Source: Callorhinchus milii
Lineage: Eukaryota
Reading direction: 5' to 3'
Length of the DNA: 64,000 nt
Assembly (NCBI RefSeq): GCF_018977255.1
Contig: NW_024704742.1
Location: 46,998,001-47,062,000 of the forward strand
Part shown: positions 25,278-63,214 of the stretch, one piece after another
Layout: the number at the start of each line of letters is the position of its first letter
Numbering within the stretch: the stretch's first letter is position 1
Translations under genes and position numbers: made by a program
Notes under the pieces: generated by a model
What the model was told of the DNA's origin: nothing
What the model saw: the letters and a program-made list of their open reading frames with translations, nothing else
The model's database searches: none

Positions 25278-25428
25278 CTTCGGGGTTGGAGCTCATGAAG
25301 ACTTTGACGCTCCTGCTGCCTGGGAGGTGCTGAGGCAGAGCAGACACAGCTCCAGCCAGAGCCGCCCTGCGCAGCGCTGAATCCCGGGGAGAGGGCAGTC
25401 TGGAGCCGGGCACCGACCACATCAGCAT
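25278..25428 (-). CDS. NWD2: NWD2 (NACHT and WD repeat domain-containing 2) first coding exon
   Basis: Minus-strand translation is MLMWSVPGSRLPSPRDSALRRAALAGAVSALPQHLPGSRSVKVFMSSNPE plus one G, followed by a GTAAG donor (25277-25273). An in-frame TAA lies 15 nt upstream of the ATG at 25428; a second ATG is at 25422. It matches my recall of the human NWD2 N-terminus (MWPAGAGTKLPCPRDSALRRAAFSG...GRSVRVFISANPE). Confidence 0.92.
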
Positions 25429-25700
25429 CACTGCTGCCAGCACTTAACACAATGAGACCGGGTGGGGGGAAAAAAAAATATATATATATGTATATATACC
25501 AGCAGAGAGAAGGGAGGATCTAGAGAGAAAGCTGCAGCAATCACACAGCAGTGACTAGGGACAGGGCTGAGAGCTGCCAACCAGCGCACCAGTGGCCATC
25601 TGAGAGCTGGGCATCAGCTGCAATAGCAAACACACACACACACACACAGACAAGCAGGGGAGAGAGAGAGAGGGCTGATCACAGCAAAACAAGTACTATT
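25429..25700 (-). promoter_or_regulatory. Probable 5' UTR / proximal promoter of NWD2
   Basis: Unique, relatively GC-rich sequence immediately upstream of the exon-1 ATG, with CpGs retained locally. The transcription start cannot be placed. Confidence 0.45.
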
Positions 25701-25704
25701 AATG

Positions 25705-26461
25705 TTCACTAATAATCACTGCAAACACACACACACACACACACAGAGACACACAGAGACACAGAGAGAGAAAGACACACACACACACAGAGAAAGAGAT
25801 ACAGACACACAGAGAGACACAGACAGAAACACACACACACACACACAGAGTCACAGACACACAGAGAGAGACACAGACACACACAGAGGGAGACACAGAC
25901 ACACAGAGAGGGAGTCACAAACACACAGAGAGGGAGACACAGACACACAGAGACAGACAGAGAGAGAGAGAGAGACACACACAGAGAGAGAGAGAGAGAC
26001 AGACACACACAGAGACACACACAGACACACACACAGACAGAGAGACACAGACAGAGAGAGAGAGAGACACACAGACACGGAGAGAGGGAAACACAGACAG
26101 AGAGAGAGACACAGAGAGAGAGAGAGACACAGACACAGAGAGAGAGACACAGACACACAACACACAGTGAGAGAGAGGGAAACACAGACAGAGAGAGACA
26201 CAGACACAGAGAGAGAGAGACACAGACACACAGTGAGAGAGAGGGAGACAGAGAGAGAGAGAGAGAGAGACACAGACACAGAGAGAGAGACACACAGACA
26301 CACAACACACAGTGAGAGAGAGGGAGACACAGACAGAGAGAGACACACAGACACACAACACACAGTGAGAGAGAGGGAGACAGAGAGAGAGAAACACAGA
26401 CAGAGAGAGAGACACACAGACACACAACACACAGTGAGAGAGAGGGAAACACAGACAGAGA
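25705..26461. repeat. Compound (CA)/(GA) microsatellite with higher-order units
   Basis: Seen directly; ACACAGTGAGAGAGAGGGA recurs. Confidence 0.98.
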
Positions 26462-26755
26462 ACCTCACATTCTCACACGATTTGCCACCGGATCCCAAAT
26501 CAATGTCAATGTGTCTTGTGTGTCCAATTTCAATGTTATCCAGTTGTATTTTTTTGGGGGGGGAGTGTGGGTGTGTTTCCAAATAATCTTTTTACTGATT
26601 GTATTTTCCAGCCAAATGGCAAGGAGCAGCTATCTCTAAAGAGGGGTGGAGTGGGGGGGATTTTTTTTTGTGGGGGGGTGTTAAAAAAAAGAGCAAAACC
26701 AAAATCAAATAGAAATACCACCCAATCCCGTTTCGAGATGAATGACTAAATCAAC

Positions 26756-27777: not shown

Positions 27778-28121
27778 CCCTCCCCCCCCCCCCCCCCCCC
27801 CCGGTGGTGAGGGGGTGTGGGGTGAGGGGGTTGGGGTGGGGGTGGGGGTGTGGGGTGAGGGGGTGGGGGGTGAGGGGGTTGGGGTGGGGGGGTTGGGGTG
27901 GGGGGTGAGGGGGTGAGGGGGTTGGGGTGGGGGGGTGAGGGGGTGAGGGGGTTGGGGTGGGGGGTGAGGGGGTTGGGGTGGGGGGGTTGGGGTGGGGGGT
28001 GAGGGGGTTGGGGGTGGGGGTGAGGGGGTGAGGGGGTTTGGGGGTGAGGGGGTTGGGGTGGGGGGGTGAGGGGGTGAGGGGGGGTGTGGGGTGGGGGGTG
28101 GGGGGGGGTGGGGGTGAGGGG
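27778..28121 (+). repeat. Poly-C run followed by a (GGGGT/GGGGTGA)n G-rich tract
   Basis: Seen directly; dozens of G4-G8 runs. Confidence 0.97.
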
Positions 28122-28171: not shown

Positions 28172-28196
28172 NNNNNNNNNNNNNNNNNNNNNNNNN
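28172..28196. other. Assembly gap (25 N)
   Basis: Run of 25 N about 50 bp after the end of a G-rich low-complexity tract. A further single N is at 57093. Confidence 1.
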
Positions 28197-29892
28197 ATTT
28201 CACTGCCATCTCGCATATTGTCGATGTAATGGACCACCAGTTGTGCATTGTAGTTGTCAACTGAGTACGTGACAATGCGAGTGAAGACCTGCTTTATACA
28301 GAAGCATCTTATGAATACATGATAACTCGTCACTCCAATGGAAAAGGGCTCAGTGACGGGTTATCCTGATTGCGAGTTTGGTATATGTATAAATACATAA
28401 ATAAATGTGGCTGGGGTTTTGACATTATGATGACTTAAGTGGGAGTGACAAATTAAGCCAGTGTTGAATTATCAGGAGTTTACAATATTCCTTCTACTGC
28501 TACAGTGCAAAGGAATAAAAATTCAAAGGCATAGTTTTGTTGAGATTAATTTCTCTCAGAGAATATTTATAGACACTCATAGTGAAGGGATTACAAAACC
28601 TCATAGATATTCACTTTCTGTATCCCTAAATGGTCTTAACAAATTCCACTTTTGTTTTCCATTTCAGCTCCCCAATTAGTTCTCCCTGAGCTTTTTTCAT
28701 AATGCCAAAGTTTTTTTTCCTGAAGCAACGCAGTTTTAATTTATCATATTTAACCTCTATTGAAATATCAAATCAAACCATACAGTGTTAGGAACTGTGC
28801 ATAGTCATAAGAACTTCACAACATGACAAGGTTTCACACTCCTCTGAGCCACATTTCATTAAAAAGGGAAAGCAATACTATCTAACTATAAAGCACTACT
28901 ATTATATCAAAGAAACACTTAACTTAAGATGAAGGGAAAGGGTATGTTGAGAGGAAGTAGTTTCTGTCTAACAAGTCAACTATAGATAGTAACAGACATT
29001 GGAAAAAGTGTTTGTTGGAGCAGTATAAATCTTGCAAATTTAGGTGGTATCTTGTGAAGAAGCACTGAAATGCTGTGCTCAATGATTGCCAACAGTAGAG
29101 TCATCTTGCGATTGCTGGTTGCTCAGAATTTTTGAGTCAGCCATTTGCCTAACCACTAAGTCAGGGCCGTCATCCTTGCAGCCAATCAGAAATATTTAGA
29201 TCACAATTTTTACCTATTTGATTATCACAGTTTGCATTTTCATCCACATGTTTCTGTGCAACAATTGCTGTCTGATACTGTAAAACAATGACCACTGGGA
29301 GCTGAGATGGGGACCCAAGACTCCATTATAGTATTAGACATTTTTGTCCTGCAAAGATATAGAAATGGGAGAAGCCAGGGGTTATGTGCATAGATTTGTT
29401 TTTCTCTTTTAAAAAGCGGATAGATTTAATATTTTCTTTCTAACATTTTGATTCATATTAATGTTTGTTGGCTCTGTGTGGTGCATGCATGATAGATTGA
29501 GGTTGATAATGGTTGATAAATGATGGGGAGTTGGGGAGTTGATCAATGTGATCAGGATCAGTCATCCAATAATTATGATGGTTGTTAGTAACTAAAATTA
29601 AAATATTCAAAAGAATTAGATCATTTAGGTTGGATTTTTGATTTTGCAAATAAAACATAATTTCCACTTTTAAGTGTCTTTCAAGTAATATATTGTTATA
29701 TTATTATATCTTATTATTTTTATATAAGTAAGACAATGTCTCAAAGCGATTTACAGAAAACAGATGTGGGTTTGAACTACAGTATTTTTATCCTAATATT
29801 ATTATTAATATTATTAATTGTTGCATTTGATATAGCACCTTTCAGGAGGATGTCTCAAAGCGCTCATACCAGAAGGATACCTCAAAACACTT

Positions 29893-30200
29893 CAGGGCGA
29901 AACTTTGGGCAAGTTTCCTTACTCCACACGCCTCTATTTACCTAGCAGTAAGTAGTAACCCAGTTGTTAGTCGATTGGCGGATCACTTTCTGGGGGTAAT
30001 AATTCCTTCCACAAACAAATTGATCACTTCAATCCACAACCGTTTGTGGGATGCTGCTGTGTGCAATTGGCTGCTGCGTGTCGCCCACAAAATATACAGT
30101 CAATTTACTTTAAAGTATATTCTGTGAAGCATTTTGAGTCGACTCAAAGACGTAATAAGGCGCTATATCAAATGCAAGGATTATTATTATATTATTATAC
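29893..30200 (+). mobile_element. Major SINE, long form, 5'-truncated
   Basis: Contains the internal block GCCTCTATTTACCTAGCAGTAAG...GTCGATTGGCGGATCAC. Confidence 0.85.
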
Positions 30201-31659
30201 TATATATTATAGGATATACTCTAAGGAGTTGTGACTGTATTTTTTGGACTGTCTTTTGAAAGCCGTCTTTGTATAAATCTCCTGTGGCCCAGTGCAATAA
30301 CTATGTTATTTCACAGGCTAGAACACATTCTATGTTCATTTGTTTTGCAGTATTTTGAATTTTAATTATGATATTGTGATTCTGTACTATTTGCTGTCCT
30401 ACTTCTTTTTAGCCTGCAAAAGTACCTTTTGGTTATATTGCATAAATATAATTTGGAAAATAAATAATAAAACTGATTGAGTGAAATCTTGGATCTTGGA
30501 TAAAATTCTGATAAAATTAGCATTCTGCAATGCACCACATTTTGTTTCAAACCAAGAACCTTTTTGTTTTCATTTACATTAAAGAATTGAGAAGACGATC
30601 TGTTGTACACACCAAACCACTAATGCAGTTTGCAAAGAAGTCAATGCAGATGTCAGTGTTGATGGGGTTTATTTCTGCCAAGTTTGTACTCAGGCTCCAA
30701 GATTTGGAATCCAGATTAATGAATGCATAAGCCATTATTACAGGTTACGGTAAAAGAGGTTAAGCTTAAAGCATTAGTTCTTGACATTCAGGAGGTAATC
30801 AATCCCAGTGCAATATTGCAAATTCATATTTGGACAAGTGATGCTGAAACAGCCAATTTGTGCGGTCATGTGCACGAAAAGGCAAAGATATTTTCATGAA
30901 ATAATATATTGGTATTAGCAAGCTTTTAAATTGAAACACACACTCAGTAAGAGTTCTAAAGCCAAATTAGAGAGATGCCAGATTTCTTCATCCCAGCTTT
31001 CATCATGAATGAATTTTCTTGCATTAATCCAAAGCTATCACAGAAACATTGTTCCAAAATTATTTACAGTGGCTTACACTGAAAATTCCCCTGTAATGTG
31101 CTTAAAATAAAAGTGACATTAACCATTAATGTAACGTAAGAGCTCCATTATGGCAGCTTCACTGTTTGAAAGTCTCCTTGTTCAGGGACATTAGAGAAGT
31201 CGGTTTAATTTATTCCCCAAATCATAATTCTTGAATAGAGTGTGCTATGGATATATTACTGCTCCACTTCTTACGTACTTTTGGAAAACTTTTGCATAGC
31301 ATAGCAACATGCACAATGTAATTATAACAGGAACAATATGGATTAATTTAATGCAGAGAATGAAGCAAAATTTAAATAAACGATACCAAAGCTCAAATAT
31401 ATTTATTGGTTACAGAAATATTTAATAATATGTTTTACTCAGCAATATGAAGCAGAAAATAATGATAAAATAAAAAAGTTCTCTCTCTGAGGACAGGGAT
31501 TTTTGGAGTTCTACGCGAGTCTGGTGTGTGTACACACATGAATAGTTCGCACTATTCATAAATGACTTGGACAACACTTGTCAGTTATAGCTTTTGCAGA
31601 TGGTACCAACCTATATCTTCAGATAATTAAAATAAGGGGGATAAACATTTTTTACGAAA

Positions 31660-31950
31660 ATCTTTGCTGTGTGCAAAATTGGCTGCGCATTTCCCTTTGA
31701 ATACAGTAACTGCACTTCACAGTAAAACCCTGTGAATAATAATAATTCACAGTAAAACCCTGTGAATAATAATAATTCGCCCACAAATATATGGTCAATT
31801 CACTTTACAATATATTCTGTGAAGCACTTTGACACGTCTAGAAGACGTGGAAAGCGCTATATCAAATGCAAGTATTATTATATTATAAGCGCATTGAGCT
31901 ATCTCGATGATGTGATAAGGTGCTATATCAAATGCAAGGGTTATTATTAC
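31660..31950 (+). mobile_element. Compound SINE 3' fragments with an internal 30-bp duplication
   Basis: Family body fragments and two tandem tails. Confidence 0.75.
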
Positions 31951-32173
31951 TCTATTTTCTTAGCATTTTAGAGCCACAATACTTTGTCAAATTCTTAAAT
32001 ACAGCCTTAATTTTGAAGCTCTGATTTCTGTACTCTTATTGAAGGAGTACAGAAACCAAAATGCTTCAAAGTTGGCAATTTCTTCAAAGAATTCAACAAT
32101 TTGCCAAATTCTGGATGCTTTGAAATACTGCATAAACAGAGTAAATCAAGACCCAGGTGGAATTTATAAGCCA

Positions 32174-32403
32174 TAATAATAATAATACTTGCATTTGATA
32201 TAGCTCCTTATCACGTCAGAATATACTGTAAAGTAAAATGGCTGTATATTTTGTATATAGCAGCCAATTGTGCAAAGCAGTATCCCGCAAACAGTCATGG
32301 ATTGAGTGATCAAATTTTTTTTATTTTTGAAGGGATTATGATCCCTGGAAAGCGATCCGCCAATCGACTAACAATCAGGTTCCTATTTACTGCTAGGTAA
32401 ACC
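32174..32403 (-). mobile_element. Major SINE, long form, partial
   Basis: Reverse-complement tail, body and internal block. Confidence 0.8.
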
Positions 32404-32965
32404 GAAAGGGAAAAAAAGTAAGTAAAAAAGCCATAGAGTGAACACAGGATCGGGATAGGATCTGATGCTTCACACAGTATCCACTTGTATAAAGAATGGC
32501 CACTTGTCCCTGGAACAGCGCCCTAAGTCATCAATCACTGTCTTCAGGAGAGAGAAGCATGTGTTGAAATTCACACATTCCTTAAAAGCCAACTCCCTAC
32601 CATTTAGAAAGGCTTTCCCTGCTTACACACTTCCCACTGAAGCAATTGCAATCTTCAGCAAATGCTTACAGCATAGCTGTTAGTCATTTTCTTTTGATAG
32701 AAGTTTGAACCGAGGTTTGTAGAGATGAAAGAGAGTGAAGCTCATTATTATAATTTGTTGCTATTTTGCGAGCCTTATTAGTGTGAATTAGCATTTCAAA
32801 TTGAGTTTACCATTATTAACCTATTGCACATTATCGTTTCCAATCATGTCTACATGAAAAGAGCTGTATGCTTTTATTTTGACATAAATTGAATGCACCC
32901 GTGTTCTTCATGGTTGTAGGATTTTAAAATGCTTTTTTAAAAAAAACATAAAAATACCAGTAATT

Positions 32966-33339
32966 ATAGTAATAATAATCCTTGCATTTGATATAGCTCT
33001 TTATCATATCTTTGAGACATCTGAGGGCTTCCCAGAATACACTGTAAAGTGAATTGACTGTATATTTTATTGGAGAAACGCGGCAGCTAATTGCGCACAG
33101 CAGTGTCTTCCAGACAGTCGTGGATTGAAGTGACCAATTTATTATTGTTTTTTGAAGGAATTATTACTCCCGGAAAAACAATCTGTCAATCGACTGACAA
33201 ACGGGTTCCTACTTACTGCTAGGTAAACAGAGGCATGTTGGGTAAGGAAACTTGCCCAACATTTCGCCCTGCCAGGAATCAAACCCAGATCTTTTGCTTG
33301 TGAGGCGAGTGCTCTAACCACTGAGCTACAGGACTCCAC
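32966..33339 (-). mobile_element. Major SINE, full length, long form
   Basis: tRNA head, internal block, body and tail. Confidence 0.9.
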
Positions 33340-33685
33340 TTAGTGAATAATAATAATAATAATCCTTGCATTTGAATATCTCCCTACTGCAGCCAGTCAA
33401 GCCGCTTTCCCAGAGGCTGAAGAGATAGACTCAAAATTGAGCAAACGTTTGAAATGTGTCATGGGAAACATAGTCAGGCCACAGATATATGCAGGAGCAT
33501 AAGAGCACTGAACAGCTTCCAGGACATTTTAAAATTTTACATTTTACAAGTTTTTTTTTCCTAAGCAGCATATTTAGTAGATCGCTAACCGCAGAAGAAT
33601 CACAGTATAATAGTACTACTGTACCAGGGATAATCTTTAAAATGATGCATGCAGCTCCCTTAAAGAAAAATACTTGCAAAATATA

Positions 33686-33767
33686 GAGGTGAAATTTGTG
33701 GGTATTTCATAGCTCATTCCTTTCTTGTCATGAAGAATGTGTTTTGAAATATCACAAATTTCACCCC
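33686..33767. mobile_element. ~80-bp palindromic MITE-like element
   Basis: GAGGTGAAATTTGTG...CACAAATTTCACCCC with flanks ATA/GTA. Confidence 0.7.
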
Positions 33768-33793
33768 GTATTTGTGTGATGATTTACATGTAA

Positions 33794-34097
33794 CAATAAT
33801 AATAATCCTTGCATTTGATGTAGAGTTTTTCATGTCTTCTAGATGTCTCAAATGCATAGACTGTAAAGTGAATTGACCGAATATTTGTGGTCAAAATGTG
33901 GCAGCCAATTGCGCACAGCAGTGTCCCACAAACAGTCATGGATTGAAAATGACCAATTTATTATTGTTTTGTTTTGGAGGGATTATTATTAGGCGTGTGG
34001 AGTAAGGAAACTTGCCCAAGATTTCACCCTGCCTGGAATTGAACCCAGGTGTCTCGCTTGCAAGGCGATTGCTCTAAACACTGAGCTACAAGGACTC
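33794..34097 (-). mobile_element. Major SINE, full length, short form
   Basis: tRNA head, body and tail; internal block absent. Confidence 0.9.
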
Positions 34098-35059
34098 TTC
34101 TTGTATCTAATATATAAATAAGACTTGCATTTGATATAGCGTCTTAATCAAAACATCTCAAAGCACTTCATAGTTTTTTTGCAAACTCTTGTGACTTGTG
34201 AGGGAAGGCAGAGAGGTGGGAGGACAACTGAAGGCACGATCGAAGAGGAAAGTCTTGAGACCGGCCTTGAAGGAGGCGAGGGAGGGAGCGGACAGGTTGG
34301 CAGGACTCTCTCAGCATGCATTAGAGTGTTAGCTGACAATGAGCACAAAGTGCCAACATGGAGATTGAACCCACAATCTTCTAAGTTAAAGGCGAGAGCG
34401 CTACTAACTGAACCAGGCTGACACCTGCCAATACAAAGCCTTATCATGTCCGAATGCTTCAAAGCACTTAACTCCACCAACAACTTGCATTTATTATAGT
34501 GCCCTTCATGCAGGTTAGTGTCTCACTTAATACTTAATACAGTAAAACCGTGTGAAAATTTATGGACCTCACCTACAGGGTAGATGAGGGCCATAAATTT
34601 TCACTTAGTCTTATAATGGGACGCGATCGCTGGTCACCACTTTTGCATATTAACATCCCTGATCATATAACCAGCAACATTATTGTACATGTACACAGGG
34701 GGCTGGCTGGCTGGCTTTTTGCTCACTAAAAAAAGGCTGACTTTACCAAGTTGCCGCCAACATCACTTCCTTCAACACACCCGTCTTACAAATGAACCTG
34801 AGTTACAACAAAGTCTGTTTGTAATGGGGTTCTACTGGAGAAAGAATTCCTTTGTTTTGGGTGAGGTAATTTTGGGGGTGCAAGGAATATTGTGTAGCTA
34901 ATGTATTCAGGAGCAAGAGAGTCAGAATACATGGCAAGGTATGTGCAAATATCAAGATTGTTGAAGTTCGTAGGCAATTGAGACACAATTATTAAGGATC
35001 AGATAGTTATTGGGATCTGAGACAACAGAATACGTAGTAAGCTTCTAAACCAGGAATAT

Positions 35060-35625
35060 TTGAATTGTAGACAGCATTACAGATAATAAATGTGGAAGAG
35101 ACATCCAAAACGCCAAACCATTGCTCAACCTAGGCGTCCAGTTTGACCCCCCCAACTGTCCTTCCTCCCCCACATCTGGTCCCTGACTAGACCCGCTTTC
35201 TTCCACCTCTGCCACATTGCCCCACCTCCAACCGTACCTTACCCCATATGCTGCCAAAACCCTTGTGCATGCGTTTGTCACCTTCTGCCTGGATTACTCC
35301 AACACACTTCTCGCCGGTCTCCCCAGCTCCACCAGTCACAAGATCCAGCTCATTCATAACTCTGCCGCCCACATACTGACCTGGACAAAACTCCACACCC
35401 ACATCTCACCAGTTCTGGCCAGACTTCAATGGCTCCCCAGCACAGAACGGATCGACTTCAAGTTCTTCACACTCGTGTTTAAATCCCTTCACCCTCTGGC
35501 ACCTCCCTATCTCTCCGACCTCTTCACTCCCCAATCAACCACCCAGCACATCCGCTAAACTGGCACCGGCCTCCTGCTCGTCCCTCGCACCCTGGAGGTC
35601 ATGCTTTCTGCCACTATGCCCCAAA
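35060..35625 (+). mobile_element. L2 fragment
   Basis: AKTLVHAFVTFCLDYSNTLLAGLP...LQWLP. Confidence 0.9.
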
Positions 35626-35639
35626 ATGCGCATGGAAGA

Positions 35640-36300
35640 CAAATCCAAAAGAGACTTGTGAGAAATGTGGATTAGAATATTCCTTCAGGTGATGCCAGCA
35701 GAAGGGAAAGAAAATTATATTTGTAATAAATTTGGGCACTATGCAAGGAAATGTAGAAATAGGCAACAAGAAACTGAGAAGAACTGTGATAGCAGAACAA
35801 AAGAGAGTTCAAAGGAGAAAAGGATGCCAGGCAGAAATGAAAACAAAAGGACAAACTGACTGCAGAGAACCAGGATAGAGCAAGTCAGATCAAGGTGCAG
35901 CAAAATGATACACAACTCGGATATGGAATCCAGCCGTTGTGAAAAGGAAGACGGGTACATTATTGATGCGATGGTACTTAGAAAGAGAGGGAATGCAGAA
36001 GAAGAGGATGATGATGATGATGATGACAAAAAAAATCAGACTGAGTCTGTGAAGAAACCATCCAGAGGCAGGAAGCCAGTGAGTGAGATGAAAAGTACAA
36101 AACCTCGAGGGAGAAGACCGAGGGCTGAGAGGTTACCTTATGTCTCTAGCAATAAGAGCAGCTACAGTGGCAGCGATGGAGAAAATTAGATCAGTGACTG
36201 GAAGAAATCTGACAAGGAATGGAAAAGGGAGCTGGAGGAATGAAACAAGAAGAAAGAGCTGAGGGAAAAGGAATCGAGGCAGAATGAGAAAAGGAAAAGG
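35640..36300 (+). mobile_element. Degenerate gag/ORF1-like retroelement remnant
   Basis: A zinc-knuckle-like YICNKFGHYARKC (first Cys lost) followed by charged low-complexity coding remnants. Confidence 0.45.
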
Positions 36301-36301
36301 A

Positions 36302-36813
36302 GCAACAACAACAACAAAATTACATTTGTAAAGCACCTTTCACGTCGGGAGGACATCCCAAAGCGCTGAACAGGGATCAGGACCTGAGCATGGTGGGGCA
36401 ACATTGGTATGAGGGAGAGCAGAGAGCCTTGAGGTGATGAATGCGTGTATGAGGGTTTCAGCGGCCTGAGGGGTGAGGCAGTGGCGGAGTCGGGCAATGT
36501 TGCGGAGGTGGAGGAAGGCAGAGTGGGTCATGGCATGGATATAGGGGAGAAAGAGAGTTGAGAGTCGAACAAGACGCCAAGGTTCCTGACTGGCTTGATG
36601 AGGTGGAATGTGCTTCCATGGATGGTGATGCTGTCAGTGCCTGAGGTGCAGAGGCACTGGCGCGAGCCAAACAGGACAACCTCGGTCTTGCTGACATTCA
36701 GCTGCAGAAAATTGGCTCTCATCCAGGACTTGATGTCTGACAGGCAGTCTGTCAGGACATCAGTTGTCCTGGAATCAAGGGTGGAGCCAGAAAGATAGAG
36801 TTGGGTGTCATCC
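36302..36813 (-). mobile_element. L2 fragment with internal deletion
   Basis: Motifs [19 protein letters not shown] and HLRNIARLR, joined directly to the tail. Confidence 0.9.
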
Positions 36814-37042
36814 AGAATTGGGTGTCGTTGAAGAACTTGGGTTAAGCATGAACACATGTATATCTGCAACAAGACATACACTGGAGCTGCATAAATATTG
36901 TTACTTGTGAGCCAGGTGTTACCCTTGTGAGATCTGTGTGTAAGTCATAGAATAGACATGCACAAGTTGACTCTCAGAAGTTTCTTTACCAGGTTTTTCT
37001 AGTTATACTGTAATGACAAAATACGCTTTCCTCCAATCAATG

Positions 37043-37349
37043 CAATAATCCTTGCATTTGATAGAGCACTTTTCATGTCTTCTAGACGTCTCAAAGCTCT
37101 TCACAGAATATACTGTAAAGTGAATTGACTGTATATTTGTGGGTGAAACGCGGCAGCCAATTGCGCACAGCAGTGTCCCACAAACAGTCGTGGATTGAAG
37201 TGACTAATTTATTATTATTTTTTTCTTGAGGGATTATTATCAGGCGTGTAGAGTAAGGAAACTTGCGCAAGGTTTCGTCCTGCCGGGAATCAAACCCAGG
37301 TCTCTCGCTTGCGAGGCGAGTGCTTTAACCACTGAGTTGTAGGACTCCA
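37043..37349 (-). mobile_element. Major SINE, full length, short form
   Basis: tRNA head, body and tail; internal block absent. Confidence 0.9.
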
Positions 37350-39039: not shown

Positions 39040-39241
39040 CTGCCTCTCTTGCTTCCTTCAAGGCATGACTCAAGACCCTCCTTTTCATCCGTGCCTTCAG
39101 CCTCCCTACTTCCTCTCTGCCCTCCCTCATCCCAACGCTGCCCCACTCGCTTGGGTCCTGAACCCCGAGAGTTCAGTGCCTTGGGATGTCCTCCCGACAT
39201 GAAAGGCACTTTACAAATGTAATTTTGTTGTTGTTGTTGTT
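39040..39241 (+). mobile_element. L2 3' fragment
   Basis: Same tail as the 53222 copy. Confidence 0.8.
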
Positions 39242-39870: not shown

Positions 39871-40251
39871 ATAATAATAAAAACAATCATCCTTGCATTT
39901 GATATAGTGCCTTATCACATCTTCAATACATCTCAAATCACTTCACAGTATATATTGTAAAGTGAATTGACTGTATATTTTGTGGGCAAAATGCAGCAGC
40001 CAATTGCGCACAGCAGTGTCCCCAAATAGTCGTGGATTGAGTGACCAAATTATTATTATAATTATTTTGAAGGCATTATTACAGAAAAGCAATCTTCCAA
40101 CCAACTAGCAACCAGGTTCCTACTTCCTGCTAAGTAAATAGAGGAGTGGAGAGTAAGAAAATTTGCCTAACGTTTCGCCCTGCCTGGGAATCAAACCCAG
40201 GACCTTTCGCTTGGAGGCGAGTGCTTTAATCACTAAGCCACAGGATTCCAC
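39871..40251 (-). mobile_element. Major SINE, full length, long form
   Basis: tRNA head, internal block, body and tail. Confidence 0.9.
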
Positions 40252-42935: not shown

Positions 42936-43004
42936 GATTAATAAATCACCACATTGCTAAAATGTTGCAAAAAACTACTCTGAAGTCACAGGAGACATTC
43001 TGGA

Positions 43005-50059: not shown

Positions 50060-50380
50060 CAATGTCTCAAAGAGCTTTAGAGTAATTACTGTTAAGCCGA
50101 ATTGGAAATCAATTTTGTACAGCAATGCTGCCCAAAAAAGCCAGATGGTGAATGACCAGATTACTTTGGAGGTTATTAACCAGGGAACCGTGAAAAAAAA
50201 CCTTCTCTTTTGAATAATGCCATGGGTTATTTAACGTCCACTTGAACAGGCAGATTGGACCTCAGTTTAACATCTCACCCAACCATTCAGCACTCCTCTA
50301 ATCCCTGTACTGTAGTGTCAGCCCGGACTGTGAGCTCAGACTCTCCAAAGTGGGGTTTGATTTAACAAACCTCTGACCCA
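50060..50380 (-). mobile_element. Older Deu-domain SINE fragment
   Basis: Reverse-complement Deu core (TTTGAATAATGCCATGGG). Confidence 0.65.
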
Positions 50381-52169
50381 AAACTGAGATTGTTAAAAAA
50401 TTTTACACAATTGTTTGCTCAGTTTTTAAACTCTAACAGCTGACAAATATTAAATATGTAAGTATTAAATAAGTATTAAAGGTAGGTTTCCTCTGATACA
50501 GGTGACCAATGCATGGCAGTATCATAATAATCCTTGCATTTGATATAGTGCCTTATCATTTGTCAGGAATTACTGTAAAGTGTAGGGGCTGTATATTTGT
50601 AGGCAAATTCAGCAGCCAGTTTGCACACAGACCTTTCCTACAAATAGTCATGAAATCAATGACCAATTTTATTTGTGGGATTGTTGGCCAGGACACCGGG
50701 GAAACTCCCTTCTCTTTTTGAATAATGTCTTGGGATCTTTAATGTCCATGTGAATCATTGTGTAGATATGACATCTTCTTACACTATGGTTGCTGTGGAT
50801 CCTGCTTTAGCTTTACCTGTATGGATGAATTAATTTGGCTAGTTTAGGTCTCATGTTGCAAAGTTGCTAGGAGATTGTTATGCGAGATTTTACCGAGAGC
50901 AGCACTCAAAAAGAAACAGCTGTTAAGAGTTTACAAACTGATCAAACAATAATGCAAAAAAAACTGTATCCCACAAAGTGATTAATGAAGTTTACAGTTT
51001 AATTCATCTTATTTATATTATAAATGTATATTGTATTATTATACTTCACTATGTGACTTGCCTGCAGATGTTATAATCATCGCACCCCAAAATCAAACTG
51101 TGGCTGTGCCAAGTGATTGCTGGTCAAACAGAATAAAGTGTTCACAAATCTGCATCAATTCTCCTAGAACAGGAGAAAGGGATTACTTGGGTGAAACTTG
51201 ACATTTTGTAGTGATCCAGCCACTGTATTACGAAATGAAATAATAATGCTGTAATTTGATATTGGTTCATAATTTTGAAACATCTCCAGCCCATTTGCGC
51301 ACAGCAATGTCCCACAAACAGCAGGGAGATTGCAGAGTATGGGCAGGAGCACTGTAACATCAGTACATATCAAGAACTTAATTTTCTGGCTACCCATGAT
51401 GGCCCAATCTTCTGTGACAGATATGTAGAGATGTGACAGCGGAAAGTATACTTCTTTTCTTGCCCAAGAAACAGCCCGAAAGCAATAAGCTGGCACCAGT
51501 TATTGGGGACACCATTGGCTGCTGACAAATGCAAATGCAACATTAACTGAGCACTCTTCAGGGACAAGTGATTTGTTTCAACTGAACTTCTCTTGTGGTC
51601 TTGTGTTTGTTCAAGGAGGAGGAAAAAAGAATTAGTTTTGTTATCTTCAAGATGTTGCACCTTGATTCAATTTAGGTCATTTGTGTTTCGTCAAAAATTA
51701 AAAGCCTTCAGAGAGGAAATGGGAGGAGACTATTACAGGAAAGTATTTTATAAGAGAGAAAAAAATCCTTCTATTCAAAAGTCCTCTGTGCTTCATTTGT
51801 TTTAACATTTTAAAATGGGACTCTACATAGTCTTGAAATCAGAAAACATTAACTCACACAGAGAACTGGGAGGATATGTTGCCTCTCAGAAGATGACAAA
51901 TCGATTGGGATGTTTAAAAGGCAGATTGATGGATGCTTGGGAAGCAGTGGTATTAAGGGATATGGAGAAAGGCTGGGAAATTAGATTAAAAGATCTGCAA
52001 TAAAAATCAACATTGAATTGCCTCCTCTTGTCCTTGTATATAGACTTGGAAATTTCATTTATTTGACCATTGCTTGCCTGAGCAATACTGCAAATACTCC
52101 ACCAATTAATACATACGTATAACTCAATTACTGAAGTATTTTTGGTGCCAGTTTTTAGTGTTACTGATG

Positions 52170-52480
52170 ATTCACGTTCAAAACCTACCTCAAGACATAC
52201 TTTTTTGCCTTAACATTAGGTCATCTTTTCCTTCCTCACTCTTTAGCTCCCACCCATGTTTCCACCAGCCTCGTGCCCTCTGTTCCACCATTGGTGTCCA
52301 TGTTTTCAGCACTACGCCCTGAAATTCTGGAAGACTCTTCCTCTATCTCTTTGCTTTGTCCCTTCGTTCTCCACCTTCAGATTGCAACTGAAGACCTACC
52401 TGTTTGACCTTGCTTACAGCCACCTCCCCCCAGCTCGGGGTCATGAGGGGCGCTATATAAATGCAAGTTGTTGTTGTTGT
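52170..52480 (+). mobile_element. L2 3' fragments
   Basis: LKTYLFDLAY plus (TTG)n. Confidence 0.75.
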
Positions 52481-53221
52481 AGATTGTGTACCCAGCAAGC
52501 AGTGTGAAGCACTTCAGATATCCTCCAATATTAAAGACACTATAAAAATATAAACTGCATTGTATAATGTTAATACTGTGGTGATCAAACTGACCTCCTT
52601 TCAAGGTGGGATAATTTCACTGATTGGTGATGATTACAATCATTGCCAGTAGCAGAGTTTTCCCTTCACAGACTTGAATTTGAGATAATTTTAAACACAC
52701 CAATTAAAAAAATGATCATTTACACCGACATCTTCAGCGTCAGAGCTGATTTAAATTCCTAACGTAGTGCCTCTTAGAATCCCTAATAGAATCAATTCTA
52801 TTTAGTTAGGGCAGATCAAAGGTCTTTATTTGAATCAAATTAGCCAGTTTTAATAATTCCAGACAAATGGGAACCTTTACTTCATTAAATGAGAAGCTGA
52901 TACACTGTAGGGGGTGAAGGACAGATCTGGAATCTACACATCGCTCACTGGGTTGTCTATCTTTTACATATTTGCTTATGTTAATGTCTGCTGCTTCCGT
53001 GATGTACAGGTGCCTGCACAACAATTTCGGCTGTGCATACTTTGACATTATTACCAGGTACATAGGAACAGGAGTAGGTCATGTTACCCATCTGTCATTT
53101 TATTACTTTATATTGTAATTTCTCTTTCTCATCCAAATACCCCACATTTTGTTTTATCCTTTCATACCATTACTTCCCAAGTACCTCTCTGTCTTTTAAA
53201 CTTTTAAACAGGCCAGTTGAT

Positions 53222-54346
53222 CCACAAACGGCTTTTCCTCCAGCCCCCGCACTGTCTCATGCGGTGTCCCTCAGGGCTCTGTCCTCAGTCCCCTCCTCTT
53301 CACCCTCTATATGCTCCCCCTTGGTGACATCATCCGCAGACATGGGGTTAACTTCCACATGTATGCGGATGACACCCAACTCTACCTTTCCTCCTCTACC
53401 CTCAACTCCACGACCACCGATGTCCTGACAGCTGCCTGTCCGACATCGAGTCTTGGACGAGAGACAACTTTCTTCAGCTCAACGTGTGCAAAACTGAGGC
53501 CCTCCTGATTGGCTCACGTCAGCGCCTCCGCACCTCAGGCGCTGACAGCATCAGCATCCAAGGCTGCACTCTCCACCTCTCAAAGCCGTCAGGAACCTCG
53601 GGGTTCTGTTCGACCCTGAGTTGTCCTTTCTCCCTCATATCTGCGCCACAACTGGCACCGCCGTCCATCACCTCCGGAACATCGCCAGACTACGGCACTA
53701 CCTCACCCCTCACGCTGCTGAAACCTGGTCCACGCCTTTGTCACCTCAAGGCTGGACTATGGGAACTCTCTCCTCGCCGGCCTTCCCGGCACCTCCCTCC
53801 ACAAGCTGCAGGTCATTCAGAACTCTGCAGCTCGTGTACTGTCCCGCACCAGGCTTCGGGACCACATAACTCCCACCCTCGCTCGCCTCCACTGGCTCCC
53901 CATCCCCCAGAGGATCGAATTCAAGATCCTCATCCTCACCTACAAGGCCATTCATGGCCTTGCTCCCTCCTACCTCTCTGACCTACTATCCCCCTACCTA
54001 CCTGCCCGTACCCTCCGTTCCTCTGGCTCCGGTCTGCTCCACATCCCCCGCCCCAACCGCCCTACCATCGGTGGCCGGGCCTTCAGCCTCTCAGCCCCAA
54101 GATTCTGGAACTCCATTCCCCAGTGCCTTCGCCGCCTCCTCCCTTTCCTCCTTCAAGGCCGGTCTCAAGACCTTTTTCTTTGACCGTGCCTTCAGTACCC
54201 CTCTCGACTCTCTACCCCCTCCTCGCTCCCTCCCTTCCCTCCCCCTGACCATTTCCCCCCTGCTCGGGTCCTGACCTAACTGTACAGCGCTTTGGGATGT
54301 CCTCCCGACATGAAAGGCACTCTATAAATGGAATCTTGTTGTTGTT
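53222..54346 (+). mobile_element. L2-clade LINE, 5'-truncated (RT C-terminal half plus 3' UTR)
   Basis: Motifs [37 protein letters not shown] and [10 protein letters not shown]; (TTG)n tail. Confidence 0.95.
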
Positions 54347-56039
54347 CTGGATCTACACTCTTCTAGGGCACTGCCAGTTTGGTTCAATTGGGAACACTCG
54401 CAGAAAAGCACCTTGAGATGTGAAGTGAGTCTCCTGCAGGGAACCCCATGTACATCACATATTGACCCACCAGAAGTTGGCTGTGAGGTAACCTTGGGTT
54501 AGAACTGAGTTCTCAAGGATTGGCTTGACGAACATTAGGTTCGCTGGAGGAAGATGCACGTTACTTCTCAAGATGTTTTTTTCCAGTGAGAGAAGCCATT
54601 TACTGTTTTCCTAACAAGCACTTTATAAACACATTATCTTTTCATTCAAAGGTCAAAGCCACCCATAATTTGGTAATACAATACAAATTTACAGCATCTT
54701 CACATTGGGAGCATGTCCCAAGGTGCTTAACCATCCTGAATTGGCATCTGAACTGGGGATGGGATCTGAGGAGGTTGGGGAGGGGGAAAATAACTGAAGA
54801 AGTTGTCAAAGAGGTAGATTTTATTACAACTTGACAATCTCTCTCTGAAAGCTCAGAAAAATATCTGGAGGTCAATTTTATGTTAGAGTAGAGAGCCAAT
54901 TACCAATGCTATTTGGGACCAGTTCCAATATGCATTAGCAAACTGTGTGGATAATTGAACATTACACAACATACAAATTGGTTCAGTGCTAACTGAAACA
55001 ATTGTGCCATCAGAAGTACCGCACTATGCTAGCCCTTTTCTCATTGACTTTCTCTGCATTTATCTTTGTCTCTGACTCTAACCCTACAATGTACAAAACT
55101 GAGTACAAATATTTAACCTCAGGCCAAAGAGTCCAGTTGCATGAATTTATGTGAGGTTACTTGAGTGATTCTCGCTGCACTAATCAAATAAAAACATCCT
55201 ACTAACCTTGGGTGCATTTGCTTAAATCTCATTCAGAAATACTGCAAAATAGATGCTCTGAAGGAGATGTAGCAATGCTCTCGCACATTTTATGGTGAAC
55301 TGTGTTGTCCACCAGGAAGCTCACAAAGAGTTCCTGATACCTGCCATATACCAAGTGAGGGCTCAAACCTGCGCTTGTCGGATGTTAATTGGCCAATAAG
55401 TGACTATCCACCTTGGGGGAGGAAAGCAGAGTCTGACATGCAGAATCATCACCCTGTGGGCACACAGCTTGGTCCCACTCCCTTACCAACACTCTGGGTG
55501 GATTTATTATATCAGCCAACCCTGTAACTGAGCTGGAAATACTTGATGTTGCATTAATGGCAGAAACAAGTTCATTTTACAGATGCTGACATACATTACC
55601 CAGATGAACAAAGCGTTTGAAAGAAGTTAATAATAACCCTTTGAAGATATTTGATATTTAGAGGGAGCACTGACAATGAAACTCATCTCTTGAACATATT
55701 TGATCAAAGCTGTCGCACTAGAATATTCTCTCATTGATGCTTTGAAATGTAGAGAGCGATTCTGACTCAAGTGATCCCATGTGGTGCCTCATGCACAAAA
55801 GGCCGCTGATAATTAAATCATATCTTTCGTTTAATGTGTTGATCAGATTCAACTGAGGTGGAATTGATTGAAAGGAATGCAGAATCAGAGCAAGGAAGTC
55901 ATTGATGAGACCATCAAAGGTAGTCAGTATAGCACCCAAGGTATGGCAGCATCTCCACCGCTTCGATCAAATTGGAAGAAATATAGATAGTGATTCCTCC
56001 TTTATCCAGTTGTCCCACCAAGGAGCAGGGTCACTACCA

Positions 56040-56155
56040 GATCAAAACATCTGATAGAGGAGTGAAATTGCTTTCTAAAGAAACTTGACACATTGAAGAT
56101 CAAAACATCTGATAGAGGAGAGAAATTGCTTTCTAAAGAACCTTGACACATTGAA
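56040..56155. repeat. 58-bp tandem duplication
   Basis: Units 56040-56097 and 56098-56155 differ at 2 positions. Confidence 0.95.
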
Positions 56156-56689
56156 ACATTTCAAAATGTTTTACAAATAACCAGGAGTAACAATTGTAGT
56201 ATTTCACGCGCCACATTTTCAATCCCTCCGTTTTGTGTCAAATATAGTGACTTTTTGTTGTGGGCAAAAGCCCACAAAGTACATAGTCACATCTCTTTAC
56301 AGCATATCCTGTATCGAGACATCTCAACAAAATGCTAAAGAGCTACATCAAATGCAATGATAATTGTTATTATTAAATATAATGTTTTAAAGTTTATTCA
56401 TTTACTTTTTTTTAGTTTTGCGGGGTTTCCCCCTGACGTGAAAGGTGCTATACAAATGTAATCTTGTTGTTGTTTCCTGTACAATTTTCTCTTATGAAGG
56501 TTCTGGCTCACACTGGTTTATAGTGCCAAGGCTATTAGTTGTCCAGCATTATCTCTCCCAAGTGACTAATTTTCATTTATGAACCCAGGTATTAGAGCTG
56601 AGCCTGGCGCTGTCCTCATATAAGGTTGATATTGACGTTCCAGTAGGAATACTGTGGACAGTGATCAGGAACTACAAAATCTGATTAAT

Positions 56690-56906
56690 CACGTCTGGGA
56701 CACCACTAAGAGTACTACAGTTGTCCATAGAACAAGGGCTAGAGAGATAGAACAGAGTTCCTTCTCCTGATTGCTATCCAGAAAGCCTGACTGGAAGTAC
56801 CTTCGTGTGTATGGACATCAGAGAAAAACAGTTTGGAGCTCAGCTGTAATTCACTCTTCCCCTCCACCACCCCACCCAGTTGAATAGCCAACAAACACTC
56901 ATTGTC
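56690..56906 (+). mobile_element. Ancient AmnSINE2-like SINE fragment
   Basis: CTCCTGATTGCTATCCAG...GTGTGTATGGACATCAG...GTTGAATAGCC..AACACTCATTGTC resembles the recalled AmnSINE2 consensus. Confidence 0.55.
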
Positions 56907-57227
56907 AATAATAATAATAATAATCCTTGCATTTGATATAGCGCTTTTCACGTCGGGAGGACGTCCCAAAGCGCTTCACAGAACACACTGTAAAGTGAAT
57001 TGACTGTATATTTGTGGGCGAACGCGGCAGCCAATTGCGCACAGCAATGTCCCACAAACAGTCGTAGATTGAAAATGACCAATTTATTATTGNTTTTGGT
57101 TTTGGAGGGATTATTATTAGGCGTGTGGAGTAAGGAAACTTCCCCAAGGTTTCTCCCTGCCTGGAATTGAACTCAGGTCTCTCGCTTGCAAAGCGAGTGC
57201 TCTAACCACTGAGCTGCAGGACTCCAC
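56907..57227 (-). mobile_element. Major SINE, full length, short form, young
   Basis: tRNA head, body and (TTA)n tail with CpGs intact. Confidence 0.92.
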
Positions 57228-57614
57228 GAGATACCAAGCAAAGACACCAACCCCAGCTTGACTTTGGCTCCATTTCCCCCAGCTAGTAGCAAGTCAAAAT
57301 AACAACAGTAATAATTATAATAATCCCGCTCTCTCTAAAATAAATACTTAAATCAAGGTTTACATGTGAAGAGTGGTTCATTTTAGCTAGCTTCCAGAGA
57401 GTGAGCATCACCCCCAGAACTGTATTCCAGTAGAAAGATAAAGAAGTCAAATGCCTCAGGAAAGGGAAGAGGAAAAAAATGAGTCTGAAATGTTTTTATA
57501 TTGAAAGTTATTAATTCAATATAAAGAATCCACTATTAAGCAGTGTGGCGAAGGAGGTGGAGGTTTTTGTTTGGTATGTAAAGGGATAATCTAGTTGCTT
57601 ACTAACATAATATG

Positions 57615-58305
57615 TCAGCTTGGCTCATTTGGTAGCATTCTGGCCTTTGAGTCAGAAGATTTTGAGTTTAAAGTCCACATCGGGACTTTGAACTCACAAA
57701 TCCAAGCTGACACTCCAATGCAATTCTGGGGGAGTGCTGTAATAATAATAATCCTTGCATTTGATATAGCACCATATCACGTCCTTGAGAAGACTCAAAG
57801 AGCTCCACAGGATGTATTGTAAAGTGAAATGACTGTATTCTGTGGGCCAAACGCAGCGGCAAATTGCGCACAGCAATGCGCACAGTAATATCACACAAAC
57901 AGTCCCACAAATTTAACCATAAATTTGGTTAATAATTGATTAACCAAATAATTGTTTTTTAATTTTTTTAAAAATTCGGTGGGTTTACTATCCAGCTGTA
58001 CTGCTGGAGGTGCTGGGATTCAGATAAGACATTAAACTGGGGACTTGTCTGCCTGTTGAGGTGGAAGTTAAAGATCCCATGGCACTATTCAAAAAGTGAA
58101 TGGAATTTCTCCTGGTGTCCTGGCCAAATAAAGTTGGTCACTCACTCCATAGCTGCTTGTGGGACATTGCTGCGTGTAAATTCACTGCAGTGTTTGCCTA
58201 CAAGAAAAATACACAGTACACTTCACAGTATCATTCTTATCAAGTAAGGCACTTTCAGACGGCCCCTAAATGGCACTCTATCAAATGCAAAAAGTATTAT
58301 TATAT
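57615..58305 (+). mobile_element. Older Deu-domain tRNA-SINE interrupted by an antisense major-SINE fragment (57741-57910)
   Basis: tRNA-like head (GGCTCATTTGGTAGC) and Deu-like core AAAGATCCCATGGCACTATTC...GGTGTCCTGGCCAA. Confidence 0.8.
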
Positions 58306-61300
58306 TTCAGCTGTCTCCAAGGGGAGGCAAACATCATCCTTACCCCATGCAACATTGGTATGTTTGCTTGAAATAAGTAGTGTGGCTTTGGTGACAACAA
58401 TGTATTCTTGAATAATGTAAAAACAGCTGTTTAGCACTTCAGGTGTAATTAGCTTGTGAAAAGCTACTAAGCTTGCGTGAATGGAGCCTACAAAACAGAT
58501 GGTTGTTTTGAGATTTCACTGCATATGAATGAGGGCAGTAACTGTGGTACATTGCACATGTCACAGTACAAAAGAGATGTTTCCCCGCTCCAGTGTTTGA
58601 TCATCTGCCTCACCATTAAGCAGGGCAAGTTACAGAATAATCTGGGAAACCAATGAATAATATTTTTGTGTGAATAAAGGGTTGTTGTCCGTTAATATCA
58701 CTGAGCGCTCCAGGTTCACTTTCAGTTCAACTGAAACGGGTTACCAGAAGTTTTACACCACATTCACACCGGCAGCAGCATCAATTTCGCCCACAAAATA
58801 TACAGTCAATTTCCTTTACAGATATTCTGTGAAGTGCTTTGAGACATAAGGCACTATATCAAATGCAAGGATTATTATTATTAATTTTGTTTGAACATCT
58901 TATTCCAGAGCAGCTGAAGACAGAAACCGATGTGTATCATTATCAAACTGCTCTGTTTACTTGCAATGTCTAACTCTTTGACTGCGCTTTTGGTCATTAT
59001 TCCCCACCTTCCTCAGCTCCCACCCCCGGCTCAGGTGCCAAATCAGTGTTGATGAGCACCTTGGAACATGAAAGGCGCAAGCAATATAAATGTGCCATAT
59101 TTGTATTGTATTGCAATAGCACACAGCGATGTCCCACAAACAGCCATGGAGTGAATAACATTTTCACATTTCCATGTCTGGTATAAGTTTAATTTGATTT
59201 TGTTTCGTATTATGCACAGCTCGTGAAACAAAAAGCAAAGCAAAACAGAATATGCAATATAAATAGTCATAATAAATCATTACTAGTCCAATTAAATCTA
59301 TAAATTACCACAAGAATTCCATCAATATCCAAAGCAAACTCAGCTTCAGAAGTAGTAAACCAACAAAGAATTAAACTGTTATACAATTGCAGAATACATC
59401 TGGAATTGTTTTCATTACTTCATTCCTTTTGCTCTTGCTTTCCTGAAGAAGTTGACTTTTACTGAGGAATTTGTCCGTGGGCACTGTCAGCTTCAGTATC
59501 TCACCCAAGTGGCCTTTCTTCATGTATGAGTCAGGGCCAGTGAGTTCAAGAGCATATCTATCTGTTAGGAAAGTAATACTGCTGAGCTTGATGCTGTTCT
59601 CATCCAACGTCCACAAACTTGCACTCCATAGCAAGGATCACTAAATAGCAAATACAATAATCCTGCCTGCTGTTTCCCTTTCCTTCAGGTAGAAGCACTG
59701 TGAACAGTAACCCAATACTCACCAGCAAACAAAACCTTACTGTATATTTGCTGTTTAGAATTGCAGGAACGAGCTCACAAATAAAATTTAACTGTTTAAG
59801 AAATCATCTTGACAATTGAAGCAATTGAGATTCAGCCAGAGATTCATTCAGCAACTATTAGAGGATCAAAATACTAAACAGAGGTCAGACTGAGGTTGAA
59901 ACACAACTTCAGAATGTGTATGTGCTCTTTATTAGCTAGCTCAAGTGTTTTTCAACCTTTTAGGGTTCAGGATTCATTTGCAAACCTTGATGGCCTGTAT
60001 TTATTACCTTAAAATAAAGCTTATTACACTGAATTTATTGAAAGCGCACATTCAGCCATCCATGGGTCAGTATAAATATACTCAGATATTTAGAGAACAA
60101 ATGATAAATGAGATTGCTTCAACCAGAATAATCTAGACTGTTGCATCTTACAAACAAGAAGCATATGAAAGAGAGGGGCTTGAAGAGGTATGGGGATAAG
60201 ATGAGCAGTGAGATTAAAGTGCTAGCTTTGCTCTGAGATGGTGCATGCTTGATGAGCCAAATGGCCTCTTTCTGTGTTGTAGATTTGTGTTTCTAACAAG
60301 CTTGCAAGGGGAGTGCCTTTTTTGTAAACCGGATTGTACTCTGGCATTTATTTAATTATTAACTTGTATTTTGGAGTAAAATTTTCAAAGAACAAATCTT
60401 TTGGTTTGGCAGAGAGATTGTGGGTTAATACAGACAATACGGTTTATCGCATGTAATGAAGAATACTAATGATCCTTTTCATTATTTGTTTATAATGGCA
60501 AGTCTCAAGGTAAACATGCAATGAAAAGAAAATCACCGTTGATAGTGATCAGCATGTGGTAGACCGCAGTATTGAATCTTGAGTTCTGACTATTTAACAA
60601 GGAGCTTCAGTTTAGACTACAACAGAAGGGAAGAGTCATGTGTGGAGATAGGCAAAGCAGACAGAAATAGAAAGAGACAGAGCACGGAAGAAAGAACTGC
60701 AAATAGAAATAGATCAACAGCAGTTAAAAAAGGGTGGTGGTAAAAAATAGTAATAGTGTAATAACAAAGGAACTGTCAGAACAGACATGTCAAAGTTGTG
60801 TCAAAACAACAACTGGAGAAACAGATTGAGTGAGAAGCGTGAAGGAGGTGCGAGAGACACTTGAGAGATGCAAATTGGGAAGGATGAGTGGGAAAAATGA
60901 AGATTGAGAGCTGCCGAATGTAAGATTACAGAAGAAACACCAGAGCAGGATATTGAGATGGAGGGGTCGAACAAACCAGATGAACAATGTGCAAATTGTG
61001 AGTATTTGAAGATGTTTATTTTGCAATGAAAACAAAGGACAACAAACTGCAAAATAAGTCAGAGAGCAGAACAGTAGCCAGTGCTTTTTCACACCTCAGG
61101 GGCTTTAAGAAATAACAACAATAACTGTCTTTTAACCTTGGATCAACTGAATGGAGGGGAATAAATTTGATTGGCCTGGAAAGGCTCTACATTTTTTAGC
61201 CGTGGCTTCCAGGCCACATTTTCCAGTAAACACTCGTGTTCCCTGAGCAGGCAGTAAGGCACTTGGTTTGTCACAATTGCCCCCAACTAAATCAAGCTTT

Positions 61301-62490
61301 TAAGCATCCTCAATATGCAAAGAAGAAACCCCATGTACAAATATAGTGCACAAATACTATTCAGCAAAGCAGTTTGCCTCTTTGGCATACATATTGGAAA
61401 ATCGATCTCTGTTATTGAGCGGCAGGCCTATCGTTGAAATTCATTCAGTCGCATTTAAGCTATGAGACCAACAATTTTGAGCGATTTGTGAATGTCCACA
61501 AATCTCCTAAAATCAAAATGTTGCCTTCACCACCAGTTCTTGTTGTATATGTCAGAGTGTAAAATGCAGGTTGAGCTAATAATAATAATAATCCTTGCAA
61601 TTGATATAGCGGCTTATCACATCTTTGAGACGTCTCAAAGCACCTTACAGAATATACTGTAAAAAGAATAGACTGTATATTTTGTGGGCAATTATCATGT
61701 ACAATAGGAGAGTTCTTTGAGATATCTCAATGCTATAATATCACGAGCTTTGCAGAAATGAATTGGAGTTAACAAAATGAGTCAGTATATATCATATGGA
61801 ATAAATAATATCAGTTCTCTTATGAAGGCATATGTAGAACCCAAGAACCAAGGCAAATCTGTGCACAAATTAATAATTCATCCACAAAACATTTTATATT
61901 GTGTTCTTATATATATTTCAGTACTTGCCTTTTTAGCAAAGAGGTCAGGTTTAGGTGAGAGAAAGAATGTAGTGGAAGTACGCAGTGGGTGTGTTATAAA
62001 GAACAATTGGCAGCTGGGATCACAAGTGCTCAGAAACCTGTATTATGTTTGAGTGTCAGAAGGAACAAAATACCAGTTGTTTTTGATGGGGAGGAGGAGG
62101 ATGTCAAAACCCTAAAGAGATGAATATGCTGTGTACATTCTAAGGTAAAAGATTTAAGAAAATGTAAAAAATAAAGCACATGAATAAAACATTGTGGTTT
62201 TACTATGTAAGTCCCTGGTACATATACATGGCATCGACTGCAAGTCGTGAGTTTAAAATCACTCACAATGGTTAAGTTAATGCAGTGAGAATTCAGAGGT
62301 GATATTACCCAGACACCATTCAAAGAAGCATTCCTGAACTCTATAGACTGAATAGAGTTTCACCTGCACTCTTCTTCAAATTTGAAATTTCTAGTCATTT
62401 CACATCCAATAAACCTTGTGTTCTTCCCACATGTGTGATTTTACTAGCAGTTTACTAGCAGTCCACTGTTTTCTTCTTCTGTGGTGAGGA

Positions 62491-62845
62491 AAATAATAAT
62501 AATAATAATAATAATCCTTGCATTTGATATAGCGACTTATCACACCGTTCAGATGTTTCAAAGAATTTCACAGACTATATTGTAAAGTGAATTGACTATA
62601 TATTTTGTGAGCGAATAGCAGCAGTCAATTGAGCACAGAAGTATCCCAGAAACAGTTGCAGATTGAGAGACCAAATTTTTATTATCATTATTTTTTTCAG
62701 AGCGATTGTTACTCGGAAATGGATCCATCAATCAACTAACAACCGGGTTTCTATTTATTGCTATGTAAACAGAGGTGTGTGGAGTAAGGAAACTTACCTA
62801 AGGTTTTTGCCCTGCCAGAGAATCGAACCCAGGTCCTTTCACTTA
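62491..62845 (-). mobile_element. Major SINE, long form
   Basis: Head partly truncated; internal block present. Confidence 0.85.
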
Positions 62846-63125
62846 GAATAGAATAAAGAGAAAGGGGTGGAATATAAAGACTGGCACAGACTAGTTGGGG
62901 CGAGTGGCTGTTTCTTGCCATATCACTCTACGTGACTATGTAACAAAGGTAATTTGGTATCTTCAGGATGCAGTCAACAGAGTTACCACGAGCATGGATT
63001 GCCCAGGCAGGTGGCATTTCACTGGAGACTATTATGCAAGTCACGCAAACCATGCGTAAAATCTGCTGGACATAATGACACGAGCTCCCTGCAATGACAG
63101 CTAAAAACTCATTGTTTCCTCACAG

Positions 63126-63214
63126 ACACAGAGGCAGAAAGGAACTCGCTGAAGGAGCATGTGTACCCCAAACTACGGGAGTTCTGCAGGGAGAACTATG
63201 GCCTCGAATTCCAG
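63126..63214 (+). CDS. NWD2: NWD2 second coding exon (89 nt, phase 1 start, phase 0 end)
   Basis: Acceptor ttgtttcctcacag| and donor CAG|gtaatg. Translation (D)TEAERNSLKEHVYPKLREFCRENYGLEFQ matches the recalled human DTGAERQALRENVYPKLREFCRENYGLEFQ. Confidence 0.95.

Follow-up and report, generated by a model that had tools for sequence, protein, structure and literature searches.

The window analysed here is a 64,000-nucleotide stretch of genome sequence from the elephant shark (Callorhinchus milii), and it contains the first two coding exons of NWD2 on opposite strands, with an assembly gap between them (Table 1). Exon 1 was read on the minus strand from its ATG start codon at 25428 to its final base at 25278, where GTAAG comes next. 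Exon 2 was read on the plus strand behind a pyrimidine-rich acceptor that ends in CAG, and GTAAT follows directly 3' of it. When joined, the two exons form 240 nt, or 80 codons with 0 stops; the split codon is translated to D and the residues around the junction are NPE-D-TEA. These results confirmed the original prediction, in which exons 1 (minus) and 2 (plus) of NWD2 had been placed on opposite strands with exactly fitting phases; the splice sites are canonical and the join is in frame.

Four full-length NWD2 proteins were compared to the window using tblastn (E up to 1), and a single match was obtained for each exon. No opposite-strand copy of either exon was detected by this search in the 64 kb, and the earlier observation that there is no plus-strand exon 1 and no minus-strand exon 2 was upheld within the window. 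Both exon peptides were 100% identical to two C. milii NWD2 records (P0003 and P0006) and 92–94% identical to a skate record (P0004). Since both peptides match the same-species records completely, their identity with NWD2 lies far beyond chance. Exon 1 is intact in the window, with no decay and with 92% identity to its skate counterpart.

Table 1. Positions of NWD2 exons, putative intron segments, and gap features within the window
Feature	Position	Strand	Basis and properties
NWD2 coding exon 1	25278..25428	-	151 nt, phase-1 end, GTAAG donor; 100% identity to P0006 residues 1-50, 92% to skate P0004
NWD2 coding exon 2	63126..63214	+	89 nt, CAG acceptor, GTAAT donor; tblastn match
25-N assembly gap, likely false-join position	28172..28196	.	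N count; flanks share no 11-mer
21-base C run, then 316-base G-rich degenerate tandem array	27782..28121	+	Near left contig end; alternative false-join site
NWD2 5' UTR and upstream region, to left contig end	25429..28171	-	Position relative to exon 1; AC/AG microsatellite-rich; putative promoter role
Putative first part of NWD2 intron 1, candidate flipped block	1..25277	-	Follows exon 1 donor; runs past left end of window
Putative distal NWD2 intron 1, orientation as rest of gene	28197..63125	+	Precedes exon 2 acceptor
Stand-in first exon of XP_042195981.1	55877..55940	+	64 nt, 21 residues, phase 1, GT donor

The interval in which the strand switches between the exons contains the run of 25 N, located 2.7 kb from exon 1 and beside a G-rich array. 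This is the sole multi-base gap in the window, and one further single N is present at 57093. Within the array (27806–28121), G accounts for 243 of the 316 bases, and 90 of 401 31-mers in 27741–28171 are repeated. The gap had been described as abutting a G-rich tract; such a tract does lie near the gap, but approximately 50 non-repetitive bases separate 27806–28121 from it. No 11-mer is common to the two gap flanks, whichever orientation is compared, and no second match to 28122–28600 was found within the window. About 120 bases from the right edge of the gap, a repeat at 28314–28484 has a summed depth of ~2,100–4,900, compared to 7–10 for single-copy sequence, in all four sequencing runs described below; it has no second copy within the window. 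Two further candidate signals were dropped. A 54-codon open frame (28199–28360, minus strand) crossing the gap was considered as proof of contiguous flanks, but its last 36 residues gave no Pfam match, and the homologue search was likewise empty (a weak negative). For a hairpin between the gap flanks the duplex energy was -11.2, a value that 253 of 1,999 random pairs also attained.

Other repeats are spread across the window. Approximately 40 fragments belong to a SINE family with tRNA-like heads, and six such heads were located (19611–19682, 33264–33335, 34024–34095, 37275–37346, 40178–40244, and 57155–57220). A fragment of eukaryotic large-subunit rRNA (38822–38924, minus strand; Rfam RF02543, 83.6 bits, model positions 2875–2984) is probably a short rRNA-derived piece that inserted into intron 1. 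The Rfam search of the window returned nothing beyond these six heads and the one rRNA fragment. Additionally, a broken LINE-like element occupies 4226–7400, in which the frame 5943–6245 gave a weak RVT_1 match (E 7.8e-05, below the cut-off).

The C. milii NWD2 cluster was found to have three members, UniRef100_A0A4W3IE44 (P0003), XP_042195981.1 (P0005), and XP_007887372.1 (P0006). The exact exon 1–exon 2 join is present, letter for letter, in two of the three (P0003 and P0006). In P0005, exon 1 is replaced by 21 unrelated residues, and past this start the model equals P0006 at 1,691 of 1,692 aligned residues. The replacement start is encoded by the stand-in exon in Table 1 and was absent from all other NWD2 records fetched. 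A stand-in of this sort would be expected where a same-strand exon 1 is unavailable; the exon is likely a prediction artefact, and the N-terminus of XP_042195981.1 is likely false. P0005 appears to have been called on DNA arranged like the window and to have lost exon 1, and the other two models have the normal join. The expectation that gene models here would be truncated was thus borne out by XP_042195981.1, which is without exon 1, and P0003 and P0006 keep the exact join. These joined models presumably either derive from an earlier assembly with both exons in line on the same strand or owe their completion to transcripts. Directly behind the stand-in exon, a 58-base tandem duplication was observed at 56039–56155 (two copies, 96% matches).

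A search with the exon 1 peptide returned two matches, the C. milii NWD2 at 100% and the skate at 92%. Among the 120 vertebrate homologues listed (of 156 matching residues 1–130), 81 contain both exon peptides and 39 contain the exon 2 peptide only, many of the latter being marked partial. A single residue lies between the two peptides in 81 of 81. Given that the peptides are adjacent in every listed homologue with both, the exon 1–exon 2 junction is the vertebrate norm. Within the full-length records from cartilaginous fishes (n = 18), exon 1 leads into exon 2 in 13 (nine directly, four with an insert) and five are without exon 1. The ray NWD2 models P0012, P0013, P0016, and P0017 have a 14-residue insert where the exon 1 peptide would meet that of exon 2, which may reflect a small exon or the use of another acceptor. 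Profile matches above the cut-off in P0003 were HTH_NWD1, Beta-prop_NWD2_C, and NPHP3_N, with NACHT and AAA_16 below the cut-off; the domains matched are encoded by exons beyond the window.

The opposite-strand placement of the exons is very probably the result of a contig that was mis-oriented at a scaffolding gap, and the layout is probably an ordinary assembly error rather than new biology. This explanation, which had been ranked first in the original prediction, was supported as the best fit, with joined models in the same species and a gap within the strand-switch interval. The end of the contig would have fallen in G-rich DNA with many microsatellites, 2.7 kb upstream of the NWD2 start. 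The contig would comprise exon 1 with approximately 2.7 kb of DNA upstream of it and no less than 25 kb of intron 1, and during scaffolding it would have been set in the right place but in reversed orientation. The wrong orientation was plausibly set by proximity ligation, and long-read gap filling would have been unable to bridge the interval, with 25 N left unclosed because the two contig ends are not true neighbours. In the animal, NWD2 would be an ordinary cis-spliced gene whose intron 1 spans at least ~60 kb; if the block is flipped, the minimum length is 60,206 bases (25,277 + 34,929).

The flipped block is likely the left rather than the right, since exon 2 continues into the remaining gene in P0005; if so, the flipped block is larger than 28 kb. 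We infer that the gap, and not the C run and G-rich tract 50–390 bases to its left, is the site of the false join. No NWD2 exon match was obtained by tblastn in 1–25277. Neither of two compositional measures separated the blocks, as TA skew was -0.024 ± 0.016 on the left and -0.016 ± 0.014 on the right, and SINEs were oriented 6 minus to 3 plus on the left and 16 minus to 18 plus on the right.

A length of exactly 25 N is what PBJelly writes at overfilled gaps. The chromosome-scale C. milii assembly is described as having been generated using FALCON, two rounds of proximity ligation (HiRise; Chicago and Hi-C), and one round of PBJelly (PMC8302630), and its largest scaffold is given as 139.2 Mb (PMC12952989, Table 1 therein). 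XP_042195981.1 sits on a contig of 139,202,109 bases, and the argument for a scaffolding error rests on this model, from a chromosome-scale assembly, showing the same defect. A higher orientation-error rate has been reported for HiRise (PMC4772016). In the description of PBJelly, a gap is defined as at least 25 N, and overfilled gaps that stay unclosed are ascribed to scaffolding errors, with inversions suspected (PMC3504050). The extended gap ends of a bird assembly are described as GC- and G4-rich (PMC7757076). The earlier C. milii assembly combined 454 and Sanger reads and used the ends of fosmids and BACs (PMC3964593). According to the peer-review file of PMC8302630, DNA from one individual was used for all of the authors' publications, so no fixed difference would be expected when the later assembly is set against the earlier one.

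Contigs from sequencing runs were also compared to the gap region. The exon 1 region was partly present in 9 of the 24 listed runs, and more than half of its words were present in four (X1–X4), which are four samples from one study, DNA-like, with none on record as RNA. Two other listed runs, X7 and X8, were RNA-like, with a share of 0.17. Contigs from X1–X4 were placed on 28086–29790, with the left flank (28086–28171) skipped as repeat. The right flank (28197–29790) was covered by contigs of single-copy depth (~7–10-fold) in all four runs. In each run the contig match ended at 28197, with 421, 421, 425, and 51 letters continuing further toward the gap; the coordinates were verified using a record that extends beyond the right end. 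The overhangs of 421–425 letters occurred in three of the four runs (X1–X3) at a single-copy depth of 7.8–9.1. To the left of 28197, the window holds 25 N and approximately 50 bases, followed by the array with repeated 31-mers. An unbroken short-read contig of normal depth is unlikely to span such an array. Because the overhangs exceed the 25 N and ~50 bases before this hard-to-cross array, they suggest that sequence other than the left flank of the window precedes 28197.

Other readings of the overhangs were weighed. Counted on the window, those of 421–425 letters would end at 27772–27776, just past the C run, and may contain the left flank after all; the 51-letter overhang of the fourth run would end near the edge of the array if the gap were ~0. 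A longer gap with missing sequence would give the same overhangs. If the gap flanks prove contiguous, the false join could lie at the switch between C run and G-rich tract (~27803). Overall, the contig overhangs lean toward an artefact.

A real inversion would explain the strand switch differently. An inversion allele, probably heterozygous, would leave the promoter and exon 1 facing away from the gene body and one NWD2 copy knocked out or rewired, and the assemblies would have taken different haplotypes. Inversion breakpoints can themselves break contigs. Two haplotypes of a single animal could also explain why P0003 and P0006 disagree with P0005, and such an allele is compatible with run contigs that did not reveal a breakpoint. 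However, a true inverted haplotype should be bridged by long reads during gap filling, whereas the gap persists. No inverted repeat of at least 95% identity brackets exon 1 within the window, and the inverted matches between 25429–28600 and 1–25277 consist of three SINEs at only 71–82%. Both copies of an inverted SINE pair at 96% (26921–27124 and 56913–57118), one on each side of the gap, fall between the exons, so this pair could not turn one exon against the other. The lack of decay in exon 1 likewise counts against this reading, and a real inversion is considered improbable. If true, a heterozygous inversion would be a modest structural variant.

A head-to-head duplicate would instead make the minus-strand exon 1 part of a second, partial copy, with the plus-strand exon 1 hidden in the gap or collapsed. 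There is room for such a copy, given that the gap is unsized, that exon 1 is just 2.7 kb from it, and that at least three runs continue left of 28197. Against this, the exon 1 seen in the window matches that of the joined models at 100% identity, a single C. milii cluster was found among the 120 listed of 156 matches and among the two exon 1 matches, and no second copy was detected in the window. A duplicate is thus highly improbable.

The perfect fit of splice sites and phase would also be accommodated if the layout were real and fixed and NWD2 mRNA were produced from two transcripts of opposite strands that are trans-spliced, as in Drosophila mod(mdg4). Joined protein models would result in this case as well, if they are transcript-based. 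The same fit, however, is expected from an ordinary cis intron, and all 81 listed homologues with both parts conserve the junction. The strand switch occurs at a gap, the layout to be explained depends on this unsized gap and is contradicted by two models from the same species, and no promoter was shown for a separate plus-strand transcript. Rearrangements and artefacts are described as mimicking trans-splicing (PMC3875859, PMC10450196). Trans-splicing in a fixed layout was given hardly any weight. A combined version, with a real inversion exceeding 28 kb that points exon 1 and the NWD2 promoter away from the gene body and with opposite-strand trans-splicing rescuing the full-length mRNA, is likewise extremely improbable. 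The order in which these rivals had originally been placed (inversion, then paralogues, then trans-splicing) was judged reasonable.

With a mis-oriented contig as the preferred explanation, the value of the observation, as an artefact, is that of a curation and annotation fix only. XP_007887372.1 or A0A4W3IE44 should be used in comparative work on NWD2 of cartilaginous fishes. Analyses of regulation or intron size at this locus would be misled by the layout as assembled, with the true intron 1 predicted to span at least 60 kb. The case also serves as a warning that local flips can occur at 25-N gaps in an outgroup genome that is widely used. No report of a flip at the NWD2 locus in the elephant shark was found among the openly accessible papers listed. 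If inversion with trans-splicing rescue were true, vertebrates would have a counterpart to mod(mdg4), and real trans-splicing would be striking.

Three known systems were used for comparison. The locus resembles the orientation errors of HiRise and the overfilled gaps of PBJelly, as described in PMC4772016 and PMC3504050, in that a strand switch within a conserved gene falls at an unsized 25-N gap in G-rich, repeat-rich surroundings. It differs from those cases in that the probable NWD2 flip was deduced from gene models and synteny rather than from a second-assembly alignment or long reads. Compared to mod(mdg4), as presented in PMC13490949 and PMC12692577, the likeness is that exons which cannot be cis-spliced as drawn share one reading frame. 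In mod(mdg4), however, separate promoters serve the variable exons and the layout of the genome is well established, whereas in NWD2 the switch occurs at a gap and a cis-type order is conserved across vertebrates. The closest match is vertebrate NWD2 itself (KIAA1239; NACHT and WD repeat domain-containing protein 2), in which the same exons and the same join are found as in XP_007887372.1 and A0A4W3IE44, and whose full-length protein has NACHT-type, NWD1-like winged-helix, and NWD2 C-terminal propeller matches. Unlike this norm, the window carries exon 1 on the opposite strand and XP_042195981.1 begins with an unrelated 21-residue start.
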